This document shows, in pieces, positions 1 through 6,516 of a stretch of DNA of 25,955 bases. The position numbers were made by a program, and so were the translations under genes. The notes beneath the pieces were generated by a model. The model saw nothing but the letters and a program-made list of their open reading frames with translations. It searched no databases and was not told the DNA's origin. Each line of letters opens with the position of its first letter. Position 1 is the stretch's first letter. Source of the DNA: a virus (Duplodnaviria > Heunggongvirae > Uroviricota > Caudoviricetes); the IMG/VR virus record IMGVR_UViG_2737471869_000024, positions 1-25,955 of that record, one strand, 5' to 3'.

Positions 1-1842
1 ATGACAGTTACAACAAAGTTCAGAAATGACATTAATGGCCTAAGAGCTATAGCTGTTATAAGTGTTGTTTTGTTTCATTTTTCATCTTCTATAATTCCAG
101 GCGGATTTATTGGTGTAGACGTGTTTTTCGTCATATCTGGATACTTGATGACATCAATTATATTCAGAGGGATAGAATCTAATTCTTTTTCGGTTATTGA
201 CTTCCTGAAAGCAAGGGCGAGACGTATAGTTCCTGCTCTCGTTGCAGTTGTATTCCTTACACTGATTATTGGTTATATGTTCTTTGAGCCTATGACATTA
301 CAGATCATAGGAAAACATTCTGCGGCAAGTCTAACATTTATTTCCAATATTATTTATCAGTCTGAATCAGGTTATTTTGATGATACATCAAAGCAAAAAT
401 TTTTACTGCATACATGGTCGCTATCAGTTGAATGGCAATTCTATATAATTTACCCGATAGTGTTACTTGCACTGTCAAAGATATTGTCAATAAAAAATCT
501 TAAAATATTTGTTGTTGCGATTGCTGTTGTTTCTTTTGCATGGTGCATTTACATAACCAGAACTGATCCCGTGTCATCATACTTCAGCATCGCATCAAGA
601 GGTTGGGAAATGATGCTGGGAGGCATTGCTTTTCTGTTCCCGTTTAAAGGTAGCGATAAATCAAGACGAGTTTTGGAATCAGCAGGGCTAATATTGATCG
701 CGCTGTCTCTCGCGTTCATGAGCGAAAGCTTGGCGTGGCCTGGCTACATTGCGTTTATTCCAGTATTCGGGGCCTATATCTGCATTCTTGCTGACAATAA
801 AAGAACCATTCTTTCTGGTAAGATCATTGGAAAGCTTGGGCTCTGGTCCTATTCAATATACTTGATCCACTGGCCGGTAATCGTCTTTTGCGAGAAGACG
901 GGAATTGAGTTAAATATTTTCTGGTATCTGGCTGGTGTAGTGTCAGCCTCAGCACTACTTTATAGCCTTGTAGAGAAGCGTCGTGGTTATGGATGGGGAT
1001 TGCTTTTCTGTTATTGTGTATGTCTCGCAGCCGCTTTGTATGTCAATGTCGACGGGGTAAGTAGTCGCATTAAGAATCCTGATTACCATCTTAATAAAGA
1101 CCTGTTCCGCCGGGCTTACGAAGGACATTTATGGATGCAGCCTGGAGAGAATGTAGACTACTTCAACGCTACAGAAAAAGACTTTGACTACATCATACTT
1201 GGTGACAGCCATGCAAGACACTATTTCGCTTTCTTCAAACAAAGCGGTCTTAAAGTAGCATCGCTAGCTGCGGATGGTTGTAAAGTTACAAAGCATTTTA
1301 TGGGGCCGCTAAACTATTCTGAAAAACTCAGAAAGATTTGCGAAGGAAGATATAAGAAGGCCGTTGAATTCATTAATGCCCATCCTGGCAAGAAAGTCGT
1401 ATGGTTGCAAGCGTGGTATACTGGAAAGGTTGGAAACCCGCTAACGACTGACAATTCTTATAAAAATGATTTCATCAGTGAAATGAAATATTTTCTTGAT
1501 GATATTAAAGGCTCTAACAGCCAGATATATATTGTTGGTGATACCCAGGGAAGCAAGGAAATCATGTATCAATGCCTGGCATCACAAGACCTTCCTATTA
1601 ATAAATTATTCAGAAAATGCAATGAGTTTCAGGATTATATAGAGCCTGCAATGAATAGCAGATTTAAAATATTTGCTGAGCAATATCAAAAAGTTCATTT
1701 CGTTGACCCTAGCCCAGCAATATGCAGTGATGGCAAATGTAGAGTGGTTGATGGAGATATGCCTGTTTACACGGATAACTCTCATCTTACAAAGGTATGG
1801 TCAGTTAAGGTTGGTGAATATATCTTTAGCAAGATAAAGTAG
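1..1842 (+). CDS. O-antigen acyltransferase: N-terminal membrane acyltransferase-3 domain fused to C-terminal SGNH hydrolase domain (OafA/Oac-like lysogenic conversion enzyme)
   Basis: 613 aa ORF. The N-terminal ~350 aa are highly hydrophobic with multiple predicted TM helices and the acyltransferase-3 signature near the N-terminus (NGLRAIAVISVVLFHF). The C-terminal ~250 aa carry a GDSH block (ILGDSHARHY) and a distal D-x-x-H block (TDNSHLT), typical of SGNH hydrolases. The ATG is at window position 1, so no upstream context is visible and the start is unverified. A terminator hairpin follows directly. Confidence 0.8.
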   Translation: MTVTTKFRNDINGLRAIAVISVVLFHFSSSIIPGGFIGVDVFFVISGYLMTSIIFRGIESNSFSVIDFLKARARRIVPALVAVVFLTLIIGYMFFEPMTLQIIGKHSAASLTFISNIIYQSESGYFDDTSKQKFLLHTWSLSVEWQFYIIYPIVLLALSKILSIKNLKIFVVAIAVVSFAWCIYITRTDPVSSYFSIASRGWEMMLGGIAFLFPFKGSDKSRRVLESAGLILIALSLAFMSESLAWPGYIAFIPVFGAYICILADNKRTILSGKIIGKLGLWSYSIYLIHWPVIVFCEKTGIELNIFWYLAGVVSASALLYSLVEKRRGYGWGLLFCYCVCLAAALYVNVDGVSSRIKNPDYHLNKDLFRRAYEGHLWMQPGENVDYFNATEKDFDYIILGDSHARHYFAFFKQSGLKVASLAADGCKVTKHFMGPLNYSEKLRKICEGRYKKAVEFINAHPGKKVVWLQAWYTGKVGNPLTTDNSYKNDFISEMKYFLDDIKGSNSQIYIVGDTQGSKEIMYQCLASQDLPINKLFRKCNEFQDYIEPAMNSRFKIFAEQYQKVHFVDPSPAICSDGKCRVVDGDMPVYTDNSHLTKVWSVKVGEYIFSKIK

Positions 1843-1844
1843 TT

Positions 1845-1872
1845 AAAAAGCCTCTACTCAGAGGCTTTTTCT
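1845..1872. terminator. Bidirectional rho-independent terminator shared by the convergent acyltransferase and tailspike genes
   Basis: Perfect 9-bp stem (AAAGCCTCT / AGAGGCTTT) with a 4-nt loop, flanked by an A-run on one side and a T-run on the other, lying between the two convergent stop codons. Confidence 0.6.
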
Positions 1873-3675
1873 TTATATCACCATATATCTGAAGCTTGCT
1901 CCGCCTGCAGCTGGAGAACCTGACTGCGTAGCAAGGACAAGACTTCCGTTTGATTGACTTAAAACATATGCATTTGCTGCTGCAGCTGAAGCATTTGCTG
2001 GGTGAATCACAACTTGTGAATAAGGTGTTATATTTTCATCAACTAGTGTTGCTGAAGCTACACCACTCAATCCATTGAATGACTTCATCACCATCTTTTC
2101 AGTTGCAGAAAGAAGGACGTTTCTTATTGTAAATGTACCTCCTCCAGTTGGGTTTAGCTTTGGAATGAGTGCACTTGTTACGGTTGTAAGATTGCAATTT
2201 GTCAGGACAAGATTATTTTGATAACTGGTAACCTGTGCAATACCTGAATTAACAACAGTGGCATTATTCACGGTGTTATCTGTAGCACCATCCGATTGGT
2301 TAACACCACTTTGTCCTGCAGCATTAATATAAGCTGAAAGAACTCTGGTATTTGCCGATCCTGCCGCAAAGTTAATACCGTTTTGCCCGCAAGTATTAAC
2401 ATAAACACTCTCAATTGTGGATCCTGTTGTTGGCAGTCCAGCATGTCCAAAGTTAATACCGTGGAAAAATTGCGTGTTGGTAGATATCAACTTTCCTGCC
2501 ATGCTCCAGCGGCAATCAAAACCAATGCCTGATGCTGATGCAAGATCCACAGATGCATAAAGCAAACGGTTATAATCACCACTAAATTGAATACCAGAAT
2601 AAGCGTCATCACCAGAAGCGCCTTGTGCATGCCCTAGTGCCGCAATACTTCTATTAGTTTTGTAAATATAAAACGCTTCATGCCCCCACGATTCAATCCG
2701 ATCAACGATAAACTTTGAGTAATGGCACTGATAGAAAAACAGGCAACCAGAGCCGTCATTGCGGATTCCATCTGGTGATGGTGCACTTATAAAAGTGCGA
2801 GGGTAGTAATGGTCATGGACATAATGAGCGTAAAAATCTACGTTCTGACACTCTGTCAGATAGACAAGATGGGTTCCAATCTGTCCTGATTGTCCTGCTT
2901 TATTACCATCAATCTCATTAATGTGAATTATTAGACCAGAGTTATTACCTGCTGCGTAAAGTAATCTGTCAAAGTCGACACATCCAGACGGTAATTTGAG
3001 CTTCCCCTTTACAATCACTTTTTTTGCTGAAGAAAGGTTGAGATTTTTTGCAACGAGAGTAAACCCTTCGGGAACAATCAGCATACCTGTATCGTCAATC
3101 ATCTTCTGAGCTGAGATTGATGATTCAACTTCGCTCACAGCTCCCCAATCTGCAACTGTAAGATTCTCTGCATTTTTTTCATGCTGAGTCCTTTTTACTG
3201 CTCCGGTATAAGGTTGAATAACAGGTATCATTGCATCTCCGTCGCTGATACCTGCACCAATCAAATCTGCAACAGTGTGACCAGGACAAAGACCTATTAA
3301 TGAGGCTCCATCATCACCAGACAACTCCTGTCTTAGCTGATCTGGATCATACTTCAACACGTTTGGATAGTTGAACTGCTGTGTACCATAAGCATCGTAC
3401 ACAGCCATAGAATGGCCTTGCACGGTAACGAATTTGGCAATCTGTCCGTTATATACAGGGTAACCAGCAGCGTTAATGATGATTGGTTGCGAAACAGGAA
3501 CGTGAGAGCCGTCTTCATTCTCCACATAAACCTGAATCTGGTTTTCAGGATTTACCGGGTCAGTGTCAATTTTACCGATATAAATTTTGCCATTGGCTAC
3601 GGCTTTAAAAGAACGCGCCATAGTGAAGAGTTGCGAAGGCATGCTTACCACAACATTTGCGGTGATATCTGTCAT
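1873..3675 (-). CDS. Tailspike protein (P22 gp9-type N-terminal head-binding domain fused to a different receptor-binding/O-antigen-cleaving beta-helix domain)
   Basis: 600 aa. The first ~110 residues ([46 protein letters not shown]...NVLKYDPDQ) closely match the P22 tailspike head-binding domain as I recall it. The remainder is Gly/Ser/Asn/Thr-rich and beta-helix-like but does not resemble the P22 receptor domain. GGAG RBS upstream. Last gene of the virion module. Confidence 0.9.
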
Positions 3676-3744
3676 TTAATTTGCTCCAGATACAAGGAAT
3701 CGCCGCAGCATGGCTACGGTGAATTTTGGGCATAAAAAAAAACC

Positions 3745-3770
3745 AGCCGAAGCTGGGTCGTTGCGTTGGT
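3745..3770 (-). terminator. Rho-independent terminator downstream of ant
   Basis: Minus-strand hairpin CCAGC-TTCG-GCTGG followed by a run of nine T, immediately after the ant stop codon and upstream of the tailspike RBS. Confidence 0.6.
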
Positions 3771-3776
3771 TATCTG

Positions 3777-4712
3777 TCAGTAGTTATGTACTGAAGGAGG
3801 TAATTCTTTATTCTTAAGTCTCATCCATGCGGAAAGATTCGTTGGTCCGTCTGGCTCATTGATATCAACATCTCGTGTGTGGTTTATTAAAACGTCTCTC
3901 GCCATTCCGATAACATACGAGAATTCATGACCGTAGTCGTAGCATCTGCCGGAATAGTTCGATTGAATTTGTTTTAGCGCCGGATACAGTTCGCGGAATA
4001 ATGCCTGTGAGCGGTTGGCATAATCCCATAACCATACAAGGCTGTTTGCTTCTTTTGCAGAAAGCTCGTTGGTTCTCTTCTCTTGTTTTCCAATGAACTC
4101 ACCTTCAAGTGGAACTCGAGCTGCAAGTGATAGTGCTTCGGTAAACTGCTCATCACTGATTTCTTTGTACGAACATCCAAAATGGGATTTTAGTGACGAC
4201 CACATGGTGATCATCGCCTTAGCCTGTTTTTCTTTTGGCAGAGACTGACCGCGACTCATGACGAGTTGTTTAATGGCTTCCTGCTGTTCAGTGGTGATTT
4301 TACCCGGCAACGCCTTTTTAGCTTTGCGTGGGTTAAATACATGACCTTTAGTCCAGTAGTCATGCAGCACGCTAAAGCATTCTTCCTGGTACTGAATCAG
4401 TTTATCACGGATGTCAGCACGAACTTTCTCAGGGTTGATGCTGAACAGCCATCCATTTAACTTCTTCAGCGGGATGCATAAAAGCTTACGTAACTTGCCA
4501 TCAGCAGCAACCATAGAGATATCTCTACAGTTGAATTTGTCCTTCATTTTACGCAACTTAACAGATTGACCAGTCCAGTCGATACCAATGTTTTCCACAA
4601 TTTGACGCATCGCTACATAAGTCACTCCGGCAGCCATAGCGGTTAAAATCTGCTGACCATTGAAAGGCACGTAAGAGGTGTTCACTGCTTCTAAAATTGC
4701 TATACTATTCAT
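3777..4712 (-). CDS. ant: Antirepressor Ant (immI region)
   Basis: The protein from the internal ATG at 4712 ([30 protein letters not shown]...) matches the P22 Ant N-terminus as I recall it. GGAG-type RBS upstream of that ATG. The supplied ORF extends 22 codons further upstream, which is probably not translated. Confidence 0.9.
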
Positions 4713-4780
4713 GTTGGTTTTTCTCCACGAATTTACCGACAACCGAAGCCCTGACTGTTCCAGCAGTTGGGGCTTCAACT

Positions 4781-5035: not shown

Positions 5036-5275
5036 GTGGCTAGAAACGATCCACAATTTAACGTAAGAATGCCAAGTGAAATCAAGCAGCAGCTTACTCA
5101 CATTGCGGCAACAAACAGGCGCTCTATCAATGCTGAAATCATAGCTGCAATACAGCTATGGATTAAGATTAACAGAGAAAAGGTCATACCATCGACATCT
5201 CAAGATCTCACAAAAACAGAGAAGGAAGCAATGGATATTGCAATTAGCGTACTTAAGAAGATTCGAGGCCAATAA
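5036..5275 (+). CDS. mnt: Mnt-like ribbon-helix-helix repressor (divergent variant)
   Basis: 79 aa with a GTG start preceded by AGGAGA. The N-terminus MARNDPQFNVRMPSEIKQQL resembles P22 Mnt (MARDDPHFNFRMP...), but the DNA-contacting beta-strand (His to Gln) and the whole C-terminal half differ. It is divergent from arc, as in P22 immI. Confidence 0.8.
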   Translation: MARNDPQFNVRMPSEIKQQLTHIAATNRRSINAEIIAAIQLWIKINREKVIPSTSQDLTKTEKEAMDIAISVLKKIRGQ

Positions 5276-5622
5276 TGAGCAGTAAGGAGCAATACTTAAA
5301 AGTTACTTTTGAGTCTTTTAGTAATTACTTGACTTCATTCAAAAAAACTTATGTATGCCCAATATGCAGCAATACAAACTGGACTCTTTTAGCACCGGAG
5401 CATCTTAAAAAAGATGATGGTGTTGAAGTTATAGGCCCATCCATACCAGGTAAAAGCTTGCCTAATAATCCTGTTAATCAAGATACTTATAGCAACGATA
5501 GTCTTAACATGGTAGCCATGCAATGCACCACTTGCGGTTTCTTCCACTTTTTTAGTTTAAACAAAGTTAGTGAAAATATCTCTTCTGGAAAATTCGTAAA
5601 GGGTGATGGAGATAATGTTTGA
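5275..5622 (+). CDS. Hypothetical Cys4 zinc-ribbon protein (cargo gene, translationally coupled to mnt)
   Basis: 115 aa. Its ATG overlaps the mnt TAA (TAATG), with GAGG 7 nt upstream. Two CxxC pairs (C28/C31, C84/C87). The region looks AT-rich compared with the flanking structural genes. No recognisable family. Confidence 0.6.
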   Translation: MSSKEQYLKVTFESFSNYLTSFKKTYVCPICSNTNWTLLAPEHLKKDDGVEVIGPSIPGKSLPNNPVNQDTYSNDSLNMVAMQCTTCGFFHFFSLNKVSENISSGKFVKGDGDNV

Positions 5623-6115
5623 CCAACATGTTCACAATAAATCACCTAGTATTTATGGAGATGCTCAAAGCCAACATGAAAACCTTGACTTTGACAAATC
5701 GTTATGGAGTTCAATAGAAAACGCTAAATATTCAGAGTATTACAGACCAACTGGCAGAAATCCGTCAAAGGAACCACAAATATTTAGCCTACAAGAAGAG
5801 CAACACAAAGAAGAAGGTCGTGATACCGTGAAACGTTTAGAGCTATACGGGGTTGCAGTTGCTATCATTGGTTCTATCGTTGCCGCCACATGGACGATTC
5901 GAGGCACTATAGATGATAAAGTTGAATCATCACGACAAGAGCTAACAGGAAACATCCAAACCAGTAAGGCAGAGATAATGGCTACTATCCAAAACAACCA
6001 ATCAGTATTACAGTCAAGGATTGATAACACTGATCAAAAATTAGACTCGACAAACCAATCTCTTTATAAGGTATTGGCTATATTAGAGTCTCAAAAAGAC
6101 AAACGTTCTCAATAG
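5606..6115 (+). CDS. Hypothetical single-pass membrane protein with C-terminal coiled-coil-like domain (cargo gene)
   Basis: About 166-170 aa. Possible starts are GTG 5603, ATG 5606 and ATG 5615, all overlapping the end of the upstream ORF. One strongly hydrophobic segment (LELYGVAVAIIGSIVAATWTI) is flanked by K/R. The C-terminal ~70 aa are Q/S/T/N-rich with heptad-like spacing. Confidence 0.6.
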   Translation: MEIMFDQHVHNKSPSIYGDAQSQHENLDFDKSLWSSIENAKYSEYYRPTGRNPSKEPQIFSLQEEQHKEEGRDTVKRLELYGVAVAIIGSIVAATWTIRGTIDDKVESSRQELTGNIQTSKAEIMATIQNNQSVLQSRIDNTDQKLDSTNQSLYKVLAILESQKDKRSQ

Positions 6116-6136
6116 TTTCTTGATTTATTACCTATA

Positions 6137-6171
6137 GCTGCATGATTGATGTCTGTTGAAAATCATGCAGC
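6137..6171 (+). repeat. Perfect 11-bp inverted repeat (GCTGCATGATT ... AATCATGCAGC) with 13-nt spacer in the intergenic gap
   Basis: Read directly from the sequence; lies between the second and third cargo ORFs, 25 bp upstream of the AAGGAG RBS of the third. No clear U-tract follows. Confidence 0.4.
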
Positions 6172-6195
6172 ATTGATAAATCTAAGGAGATCGGC

Positions 6196-6516
6196 ATGTA
6201 CATATCGCTCTCTACCATTTTTTTCATCTGCTTAGCTATTTGGCTTTTAAGAATATGGCAGGATTGCTCTGTCAGCCATGCTGCTGCGGTGAGAAATAAA
6301 AACGCCCTCATAAAAGAAGCTGAAAACGTTGTCTTATCAATGGATCACCTTTCATGGACCGAGATGACTACAGGGCAACAAGAGGTTTATGAGTGTGCGA
6401 TTGAGCGGTTAAGGCTGCTTAAATCGTACAAAAAGAACCACGCTCCCGACTCATTCCCATTCCTGAAAGAATGGCCGAGATGGTATGACCCGAAAAAAGC
6501 AACCATCAACCGCTAA
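6196..6516 (+). CDS. Hypothetical small membrane-anchored protein (cargo gene)
   Basis: 106 aa with a strong RBS (AAGGAG, 7 nt spacing). N-terminal hydrophobic segment MYISLSTIFFICLAIWLLRIW, either a signal anchor or a signal peptide (possible AxA-like site SHA-AAV). The stop codon lies 8 bp from the convergent gp16 stop. Confidence 0.6.
   Translation: MYISLSTIFFICLAIWLLRIWQDCSVSHAAAVRNKNALIKEAENVVLSMDHLSWTEMTTGQQEVYECAIERLRLLKSYKKNHAPDSFPFLKEWPRWYDPKKATINR

Follow-up and report, generated by a model that had tools for sequence, protein, structure and literature searches.

HK620 and epsilon34 tailspikes are textbook cases of a domain swap, i.e., a P22-type head-binding domain joined to a different receptor-binding domain. 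Because the principle is textbook knowledge, one more chimera adds little by itself. Tailspike sharing across phage morphotypes is also known, e.g., for P22, 9NA, and Det7, and serogroup-specific, horizontally transferred tailspike subtypes were described in genera that include the Lederbergviruses (Pas et al. 2023, PMC10408124). Modification of the receptor by the lysogen has precedents as well. In Sf6, O-acetylation hinders the phage's own endorhamnosidase tailspike (PMC9558356), and GtrC of BTP1 gives protection from the tailspike of this phage and from the phage itself (PMC4413052). The value of the locus described here is a concrete assignment, i.e., an uncharacterised tailspike family that tracks a rare serogroup with a pseudaminic acid (Pse) O-antigen.

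The window, i.e., the whole stretch of 25,955 nt that was analysed, corresponds to the late region of a prophage of the P22 type. The genes were arranged in the order of nin genes, gene 23, lysis genes, terminase, portal, scaffold, coat, tail genes, and ejection proteins, followed by three small unknown ORFs, mnt, arc, ant, the tailspike, and a convergent acyltransferase. The tailspike had the place usual in Lederbergviruses, with the immI region (mnt-arc-ant) and the late virion genes ahead of it and the conversion genes and int behind. The integrase followed the acyltransferase in Escherichia coli Tig228 and Escherichia sp. WS436, and the Tig228 copy of the locus sits in a degraded prophage. 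The Ant antirepressor of immI (3777..4778, minus strand; PF10547 and PF10548; phrog_245) was directly upstream of the tailspike, as in P22. Between them, the terminator scan found a terminator-like hairpin with a T-run (3743..3756, minus strand) in the t_ant position, where the ant terminators of P22, epsilon34, and HK620 are annotated. Another hairpin, with flanking A-run and T-run, was recognized from the sequence and the terminator scan between the two convergent stop codons (1845..1870, no strand assigned). Its position is that of annotated terminators of Sf6, P22, and epsilon34, and it is probably a bidirectional intrinsic terminator.

The tailspike gene (1873..3675, minus strand) was identified from the ORF list, Pfam, and an exact protein look-up. 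The ORF was intact with an ATG start and a 600-aa product, and RefSeq already holds the identical protein, WP_052521281.1, named 'phage head-binding domain-containing protein [Escherichia coli]'. In the Pfam scan of the 600-aa protein, no domain was found besides PF09008 Head_binding, which covered aa 1-113 with all 113 model positions (E = 4.7e-66). This tail-hub attachment domain of the P22 family (3337..3675, minus strand) also matched the PDB head-binding chains 1lkt, 2vky, 8eb7, and 7sg7. The initial annotation had described the N-terminus as nearly that of P22 gp9. The domain is indeed P22-type, but it is nearer to those of HK620 (96% identity), Sf6 (91%), and epsilon34 (90%) than to that of P22 (76%).

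Past the motif NVLKYDPDQ, of which YDPDQ is aa 109-113, the identity to the four reference tailspikes dropped to about 20%. For P22, Sf6, HK620, and epsilon34, respectively, the identities were 21, 14, 28, and 14% in aa 114-142; 23, 40, 19, and 40% in aa 143-199; 19, 22, 25, and 23% in aa 200-500; and 18, 15, 23, and 9% in aa 501-600. Because the region identities break there, the joint lies where the initial annotation had put it. The PDB chains of P22 gp9 were aligned to aa 1-117 only, and no similarity was detected in the PDB chain alignment over the catalytic beta-helix of gp9 (gp9 residues ~125-666), so full-length similarity to the P22 tailspike was not found. The Sf6 gp14 match in PDB was strong to ~aa 112 and weak to aa 209. 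Over the Sf6 gp14 beta-helix, including the inter-subunit catalytic residues, only the cap at aa 143-199 matched, and the helix body was 22% identical. The rest of the protein had been called unrelated to the P22 receptor-binding domain. This holds for the low identity of 18-23%, but not for the cap, which is homologous to those of Sf6 and epsilon34, nor for the predicted fold class, which is that of P22.

The joint was also visible in DNA. The linker, or recombination joint zone (aa 114-142; 3250..3336, minus strand), was delimited by the ends of DNA similarity, mismatch densities, and the alignment of homologues. When the window was compared by megablast with 50,697 phage records, 713 of them matched, with alignments beginning at window positions 3323-3337, i.e., gene nt 339-353 or codons 113-118. 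From there, the alignments extended through the virion genes of E. coli P22-like phages with 92-96% DNA identity, and window positions 1-3322 had no megablast match among these records. In 1,150 of the 5,426 complete E. coli genomes, the shared part was limited to gene nt 1 to ~350-384. The whole tailspike gene was found in one of the 5,426, i.e., Tig228. When the module was searched by distant blastn and the WS436 variant by megablast in complete E. coli genomes, no diverged copies were found beyond Tig228.

Compared with Tig228, 25 mismatches were counted in gene nt 9-309, whereas nt 310-3675 (3,366 nt, i.e., the remaining gene and the acyltransferase gene) had 7, and the mismatch density shifted at nt 309/310. 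Therefore, the head-binding alleles in front of one receptor-binding module can differ, and the DNA upstream of them is unrelated. Compared with WS436, gene nt 310-415 were identical, nt 416-1786 were ~45% mismatched, and nt 1787-3675 had 3 mismatches. The breakpoints, at gene nt 416 and 1786, were sharp. The two patterns therefore indicate at least three exchange points, of which one follows the head-binding domain, one follows the linker, and one lies shortly ahead of the stop codon. The cassette with the beta-helix (aa ~139-596), whose 3' boundary is at gene nt ~1786, can be exchanged independently. The GC content was 48% in the phage backbone, but lower in the cassette (42%) and lowest in the acyltransferase gene (39%).

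The same module was found behind another anchor. Homologues with PF18668 in place of PF09008 showed 84%, 71%, and ~52% identity over aa ~115-600, and their similarity began at the linker motif LRxxL...DGAxxxG. In the closest of them, P0003 (84% over aa 115-600), the similarity began at aa ~114. The genes of P0003, P0009, and P0018 lie directly after tape-measure and GpJ-like genes, i.e., in siphovirus-type prophages, and the hosts of such carriers include Enterobacter ludwigii and Providencia. The slot after the spike in these prophages held gtr genes, a short Oac-like AT3 gene, or nothing. The cassette is exchanged between podovirus prophages of the P22 type and siphovirus-type prophages with the PF18668 anchor. 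The modular swap at the domain linker, which had been proposed from the window itself, was thus shown directly by these homologues together with the mismatch shift against Tig228.

The receptor-binding module was divided into a neck or cap (aa 143-199; 3079..3249, minus strand), a predicted right-handed parallel beta-helix body (aa 200-500; 2176..3078, minus strand), and a C-terminal beta-strand region (aa 501-600; 1876..2175, minus strand), which ends in a conserved FRYMVI and was assigned from the model secondary structure (pLDDT 83-92). The cap (~55 aa) was aligned with Sf6 residues 132-190 and is the sole part of the module homologous to solved tailspikes, with hhalign probabilities of 96.6% for Sf6 and 93.6% for epsilon34. 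A family profile of 18 sequences hit only the Sf6 cap in PDB (aa 143-199, E = 1.6e-8). The helix body had no sequence match in that search, and aa 200-600 had no tblastn match at E ≤ 1e-3 in the 50,697 phage records. Because the body has no sequence match in PDB, its catalytic residues are not assignable by homology. Among 1.84 billion representative proteins, the family is small, with 133 matches at E ≤ 1e-3, of which 40 reached E ≤ 1e-30.

Structure prediction had been suggested for this part of the protein, and AlphaFold2 with 34 sequences gave pLDDT > 90 across most of aa 170-600. The model strands were short and regularly spaced, typical of a right-handed parallel beta-helix, the fold expected of the receptor-binding domain of a P22-like tailspike, and were followed by the C-terminal beta region. 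The N-terminal domain was modelled poorly as a monomer, which is expected because this domain is a trimeric dome. In Foldseek, Sf6, P22, HK620, CBA120 TSP3, and Klebsiella depolymerases were ranked, with Sf6 as the best receptor-domain match. The top structural neighbour was gp47 of Acinetobacter phage APK16 (PDB 8OPZ), a K16 capsule depolymerase. The cassette is thus a predicted beta-helix without a characterised or solved relative. The family-invariant residues included D234 and D236 (DFDR), E254 and D256 (INEIDGN), H269, D302, E333, D387, H411, and D462. Eight of them are carboxylates, invariant in a family that diverges down to 36% identity. These residues are compatible with a glycosidase groove, without proving one.

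The convergent gene (1..1842, plus strand) encodes a 613-aa AT3-SGNH acyltransferase (PF01757 and PF19040), predicted to be an O-antigen O-acetyltransferase and a lysogenic-conversion gene. It matched phrog_6705, 'O-antigen acetylase', at E = 1.4e-147. The motifs of AT3-SGNH fusions were all intact, i.e., RX10H at aa 15-26, GDSH at 401, and DNSH (DxxH) at 592. The protein was 57% identical to the O-antigen acetylase of phage PAS61, and its AT3 half was 45% identical to BTP1 GtrC. The SGNH half had no PDB match. PDB matches of the acyltransferase to designed repeat proteins were rejected as spurious.

The same 613-aa gene was found behind the spike in every P22-like context seen, where the spikes had 99%, 81%, and 65% overall identity. 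Across these contexts, the acyltransferase was 96-100% identical, and the identity of the neighbouring helix ranged from 99% to 54%. The co-inheritance of the receptor-binding module and the acyltransferase as one unit was considered and rejected on the WS436 comparison, in which the breakpoints at nt 416/1786 enclose a beta-helix of 54% identity and the acyltransferase is 99.4-100% identical. Because the enzyme is constant while the WS436 beta-helix differs by 46%, the coupling of enzyme and substrate is not strict. A constant acyltransferase beside diverged helices suggests either continued activity of the variants on O136-type chains or a loose coupling. The initial annotation had also proposed that the spike acts on the glycan modified by the neighbouring acyltransferase, which is plausible by analogy to Sf6 and BTP1. 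No record of an O-acetylated O136 O-antigen was found in the literature searched.

For the host receptor, the carriers of the tailspike pointed to one serogroup. Tig228 carries pseBCFGI and wzx/wzy annotated as O136 family. Among the 5,426 complete E. coli genomes, only 4 have the O136 wzy. GCA_026134525.1 has one contig of 5,167,313 bp that holds both the tailspike (3.86-3.88 Mb) and the O136 wzy (3.92-3.94 Mb). In GCA_047262175.1, a contig of 5,322,936 bp was the longest for the tailspike variant P0247 and likewise for the O136 Wzy, Wzx, and glycosyltransferase. The O136 cluster was thus present in all three chromosome-scale E. coli carriers checked. Further lysogens were placed by their flanks. 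The flank of the L015 lysogens had its sole perfect match among 5,422 genomes in the O136 strain 08-00022, in which the dacD|sbcB junction is empty, and that of the L016 lysogen differed from the flank of the O136 lysogen GCA_026134525.1 by 1 mismatch in 7,503 nt. The best complete-genome match of the L016 flank was G3/10 with an O13/O129/O135 cluster, which had seemed to speak against O136 before the GCA_026134525.1 flank was compared. Host typing by flank alone is weak, and the O136 link rests on the direct co-occurrences. The association comprises three chromosomes and two flank inferences and is possibly partly clonal. The O136 hosts showed at least three flank or insertion-site types, i.e., argW in Tig228 and two dacD flanks (69 mismatches in 3,958 nt).

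Lysogeny records a past infection of an O136 host and does not identify the molecule bound by the spike. With this reservation, the O136 O-antigen is the likely target, judging from the co-occurrences. Staaf et al. 1999 reportedly described the O136 repeat as a Pse-Gal-GlcNAc trisaccharide. The galactosyltransferase of the O136 cluster is named beta-1,4-Gal:GlcNAc-PP-Und transferase by one source, and the antigen contains Pse5Ac7Ac (PMC7685785). O136 is absent from the 14 serogroups assigned by Pas et al. 2023 (PMC10408124) and from its supplements, and none of the literature searched pairs O136 with a tailspike. The O136 specificity is thus a new and specific hypothesis relative to that literature.

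On balance, it is rather probable that the locus, from a temperate phage of E. coli, encodes a Lederbergvirus-type modular tailspike whose beta-helix hydrolyses the O136 O-antigen, and an acyltransferase that masks the same glycan in the lysogen. By analogy to P22, Sf6, and HK620, the spike would form a trimer, and six trimers would dock on the tail hub through aa 1-113. The beta-helix would bind the host O-antigen, likely the O136 repeat with Pse5Ac7Ac, and probably hydrolyse it, with D234/D236, E254/D256, E333, and D387 as candidate carboxylates, and the cleavage would give the virion access to the outer membrane. In the lysogen, following the models of Sf6 Oac and BTP1 GtrC, the convergent AT3-SGNH enzyme would attach O-acetyl groups to this O-antigen in the periplasm. 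Once acetylated, the glycan would be a poor substrate for the phage's own tailspike, by which superinfection would be blocked and the serotype altered. A bolder version is offered tentatively, and we lean slightly against it. In that version, the cassette would found a glycosidase family depolymerising O136, with its receptor switched off by the AT3-SGNH enzyme, traded among podovirus- and siphovirus-type prophages in hosts of the genera Escherichia, Enterobacter, and Providencia, and it might share recognition with the depolymerase of Acinetobacter K16 (Pse-Gal-GalNAc).

The chemistry and the target of the spike could each be otherwise. The module may recognise the O-antigen without hydrolysing it, by binding only or by lyase or deacetylase chemistry. 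We consider this unlikely, since the eight carboxylates invariant down to 36% identity are as in hydrolytic tailspikes, and to our knowledge the characterised P22-like tailspikes are all endoglycosidases. The O136 repeat described by Staaf et al. 1999 reportedly lacks a uronic acid of the kind needed by beta-eliminating lyases, and neither an SGNH nor an esterase fold was seen in the spike by Pfam and in the predicted model. The spike may instead target another glycan, e.g., capsule, colanic acid, or ECA, and the O136 co-occurrence would then reflect the clonal spread of a few lysogenic lineages. The best PHROG label, 'tail spike protein with colanic acid degradation activity', would suit such a target, and the chromosomes checked are few, with some flanks common to several. 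However, it is the N-terminal domain and the cap that give the PHROG match. Of its members, epsilon34 can be aligned no further than aa ~265 and SEN22 no further than ~150, and with hhalign of the full protein, the limit is aa ~291. The label was rejected for this reason, as the helix body has no part in the match. Given also the distinct flank and insertion-site types of the O136 hosts and the O-antigen-type acetyltransferase adjoining the spike, another target is quite improbable.

The acyltransferase may also be independent of the tailspike, as a generic conversion moron between the tailspike and int/att, or it may even create the receptor of the spike. The gene that stays the same (>99% identical) beside beta-helices of 99%, 87%, and 54% identity speaks for this independence, as do the siphovirus-type homologues of the spike, behind which gtr genes, a short Oac-like AT3 gene, or nothing is found. 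However, P22, epsilon34, Sf6, and BTP1 use this slot for genes that modify the O-antigen of their own spike, and the acyltransferase gene matches the spike in rarity, i.e., it occurs in one of the 5,426 complete E. coli genomes, which is the same Tig228 genome. An unrelated or receptor-creating enzyme is improbable on this evidence, and masking of the spike's own glycan by the acyltransferase is preferred.

Enzymes and binders specific to Pse glycans are scarce, and they are wanted for typing, glycan analysis, and the engineering of phage host range. In addition, the locus offers a clear case from nature of three independent exchange points, in which the anchor, linker, beta-helix, and acyltransferase are separable. 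One conversion enzyme with diverged spikes gives a handle on the co-evolution of receptor-destroying and receptor-masking enzymes.

Of the known systems, Sf6 gp14 with oac is similar in the head-binding domain (91%), the homologous cap, and the right-handed beta-helix, which is predicted here. The locus is similar too, i.e., tailspike, terminator, convergent O-antigen acetyltransferase, and then integrase in some relatives. However, the helix body, with only 22% identity, escapes profile search, the Sf6 Oac is an AT3-only protein of 333 aa whereas an AT3-SGNH fusion of 613 aa is present here, and the Sf6 glycan is the rhamnose-based S. flexneri backbone whereas it is probably O136 here. P22 gp9 shares the head-binding domain (76%), the gene position after mnt-arc-ant, and the overall architecture, but no sequence similarity past aa ~117, and the P22 tailspike is followed by gtrABC, not by an acyltransferase. 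HK620 and epsilon34 come closest in the N-terminal domain (96% and 90%), and the cap is common to epsilon34, whereas both have their own receptor-binding domains (19-25% identity). The OafA/OafB-type enzymes and BTP1 GtrC share AT3 and SGNH with the RX10H, GDSH, and DxxH motifs, but the acyltransferase here has no close characterised homologue. The subtypes of Pas et al. 2023 do not cover O136, but they show the same arrangement as this tailspike, i.e., an anchor with an exchangeable receptor-binding domain that follows the O-serogroup across phage genera.

The tailspike-acyltransferase module was found in prophages at different chromosomal sites. In most lysogens (loci L015-L020 and L030; for comparison, L013 and L022), the prophage site was the sbcB/dacD interval, with dacD adjoining the acyltransferase end of the prophage. 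On the same chromosome, wzy of the O136 antigen cluster lay approximately 57 kb from this end. The module was also present in the argW/intS prophages of E. coli Tig228 and Escherichia sp. WS436, and in a prophage adjoining ybhB-bioA (L006). Therefore, one module occupies three attachment sites and differing phage backbones.

The Tig228 copy (L001; NZ_CM196107.1, 1.52-1.54 Mb) is placed in a degraded prophage at argW that lacks most virion genes. Its ejection-protein genes are directly adjoined by holin and lysozyme genes, and an HNH endonuclease gene was found upstream of the tailspike gene. Despite this degradation, both the tailspike and acyltransferase ORFs were intact, and the acyltransferase was 100% identical to that of the window. 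The GC content was 39% in the acyltransferase gene and 42% in the receptor-binding cassette of the tailspike, versus 48% in the phage backbone (window 1-3322 vs. 3800-25955). Because the cassette and acyltransferase gene are clearly AT-richer than the backbone, their composition is consistent with a foreign, moron-like origin.

Four distant tailspike homologs (P0020, P0021, P0022, and P0038) showed a C-terminal region with an insertion of approximately 55-90 aa that contains a tandemly repeated motif, i.e., ...SGTFxxGExxTGGTSGATAxV.... This insertion is absent from the window tailspike.

Four complete genomes are O136, and the O-antigen cluster is disrupted in two of them, i.e., E. coli 08-00022 (L022) and WCHEC025985 (L029). 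In 08-00022, wzx has a frameshift, and pseI is annotated with a product of unusual length, which extends over the region that holds separate pseG and pseI genes in Tig228. In WCHEC025985, wzx is truncated and preceded by an IS element. Both strains may be rough or semi-rough, which, if true, bears on the choice of O136 test strains.

The Ant ORF (3777-4778, minus strand) was called mechanically from a TTG start as 333 aa, versus 302-311 aa in relatives. The length of the relatives agrees with a putative start at an internal ATG, 22 codons downstream of the TTG.

The interval from mnt to gene 16 contains three short ORFs on the plus strand (5275-6516), encoding 115, 170, and 106 aa. Their PHROG matches (phrog_4293, 24865, and 10450) are all of unknown function; the ORFs may be genes for exclusion or accessory functions that the prophage expresses. 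The same slot is occupied by sieA/orf59a in P22 and by hkcB/hkcC in HK620.
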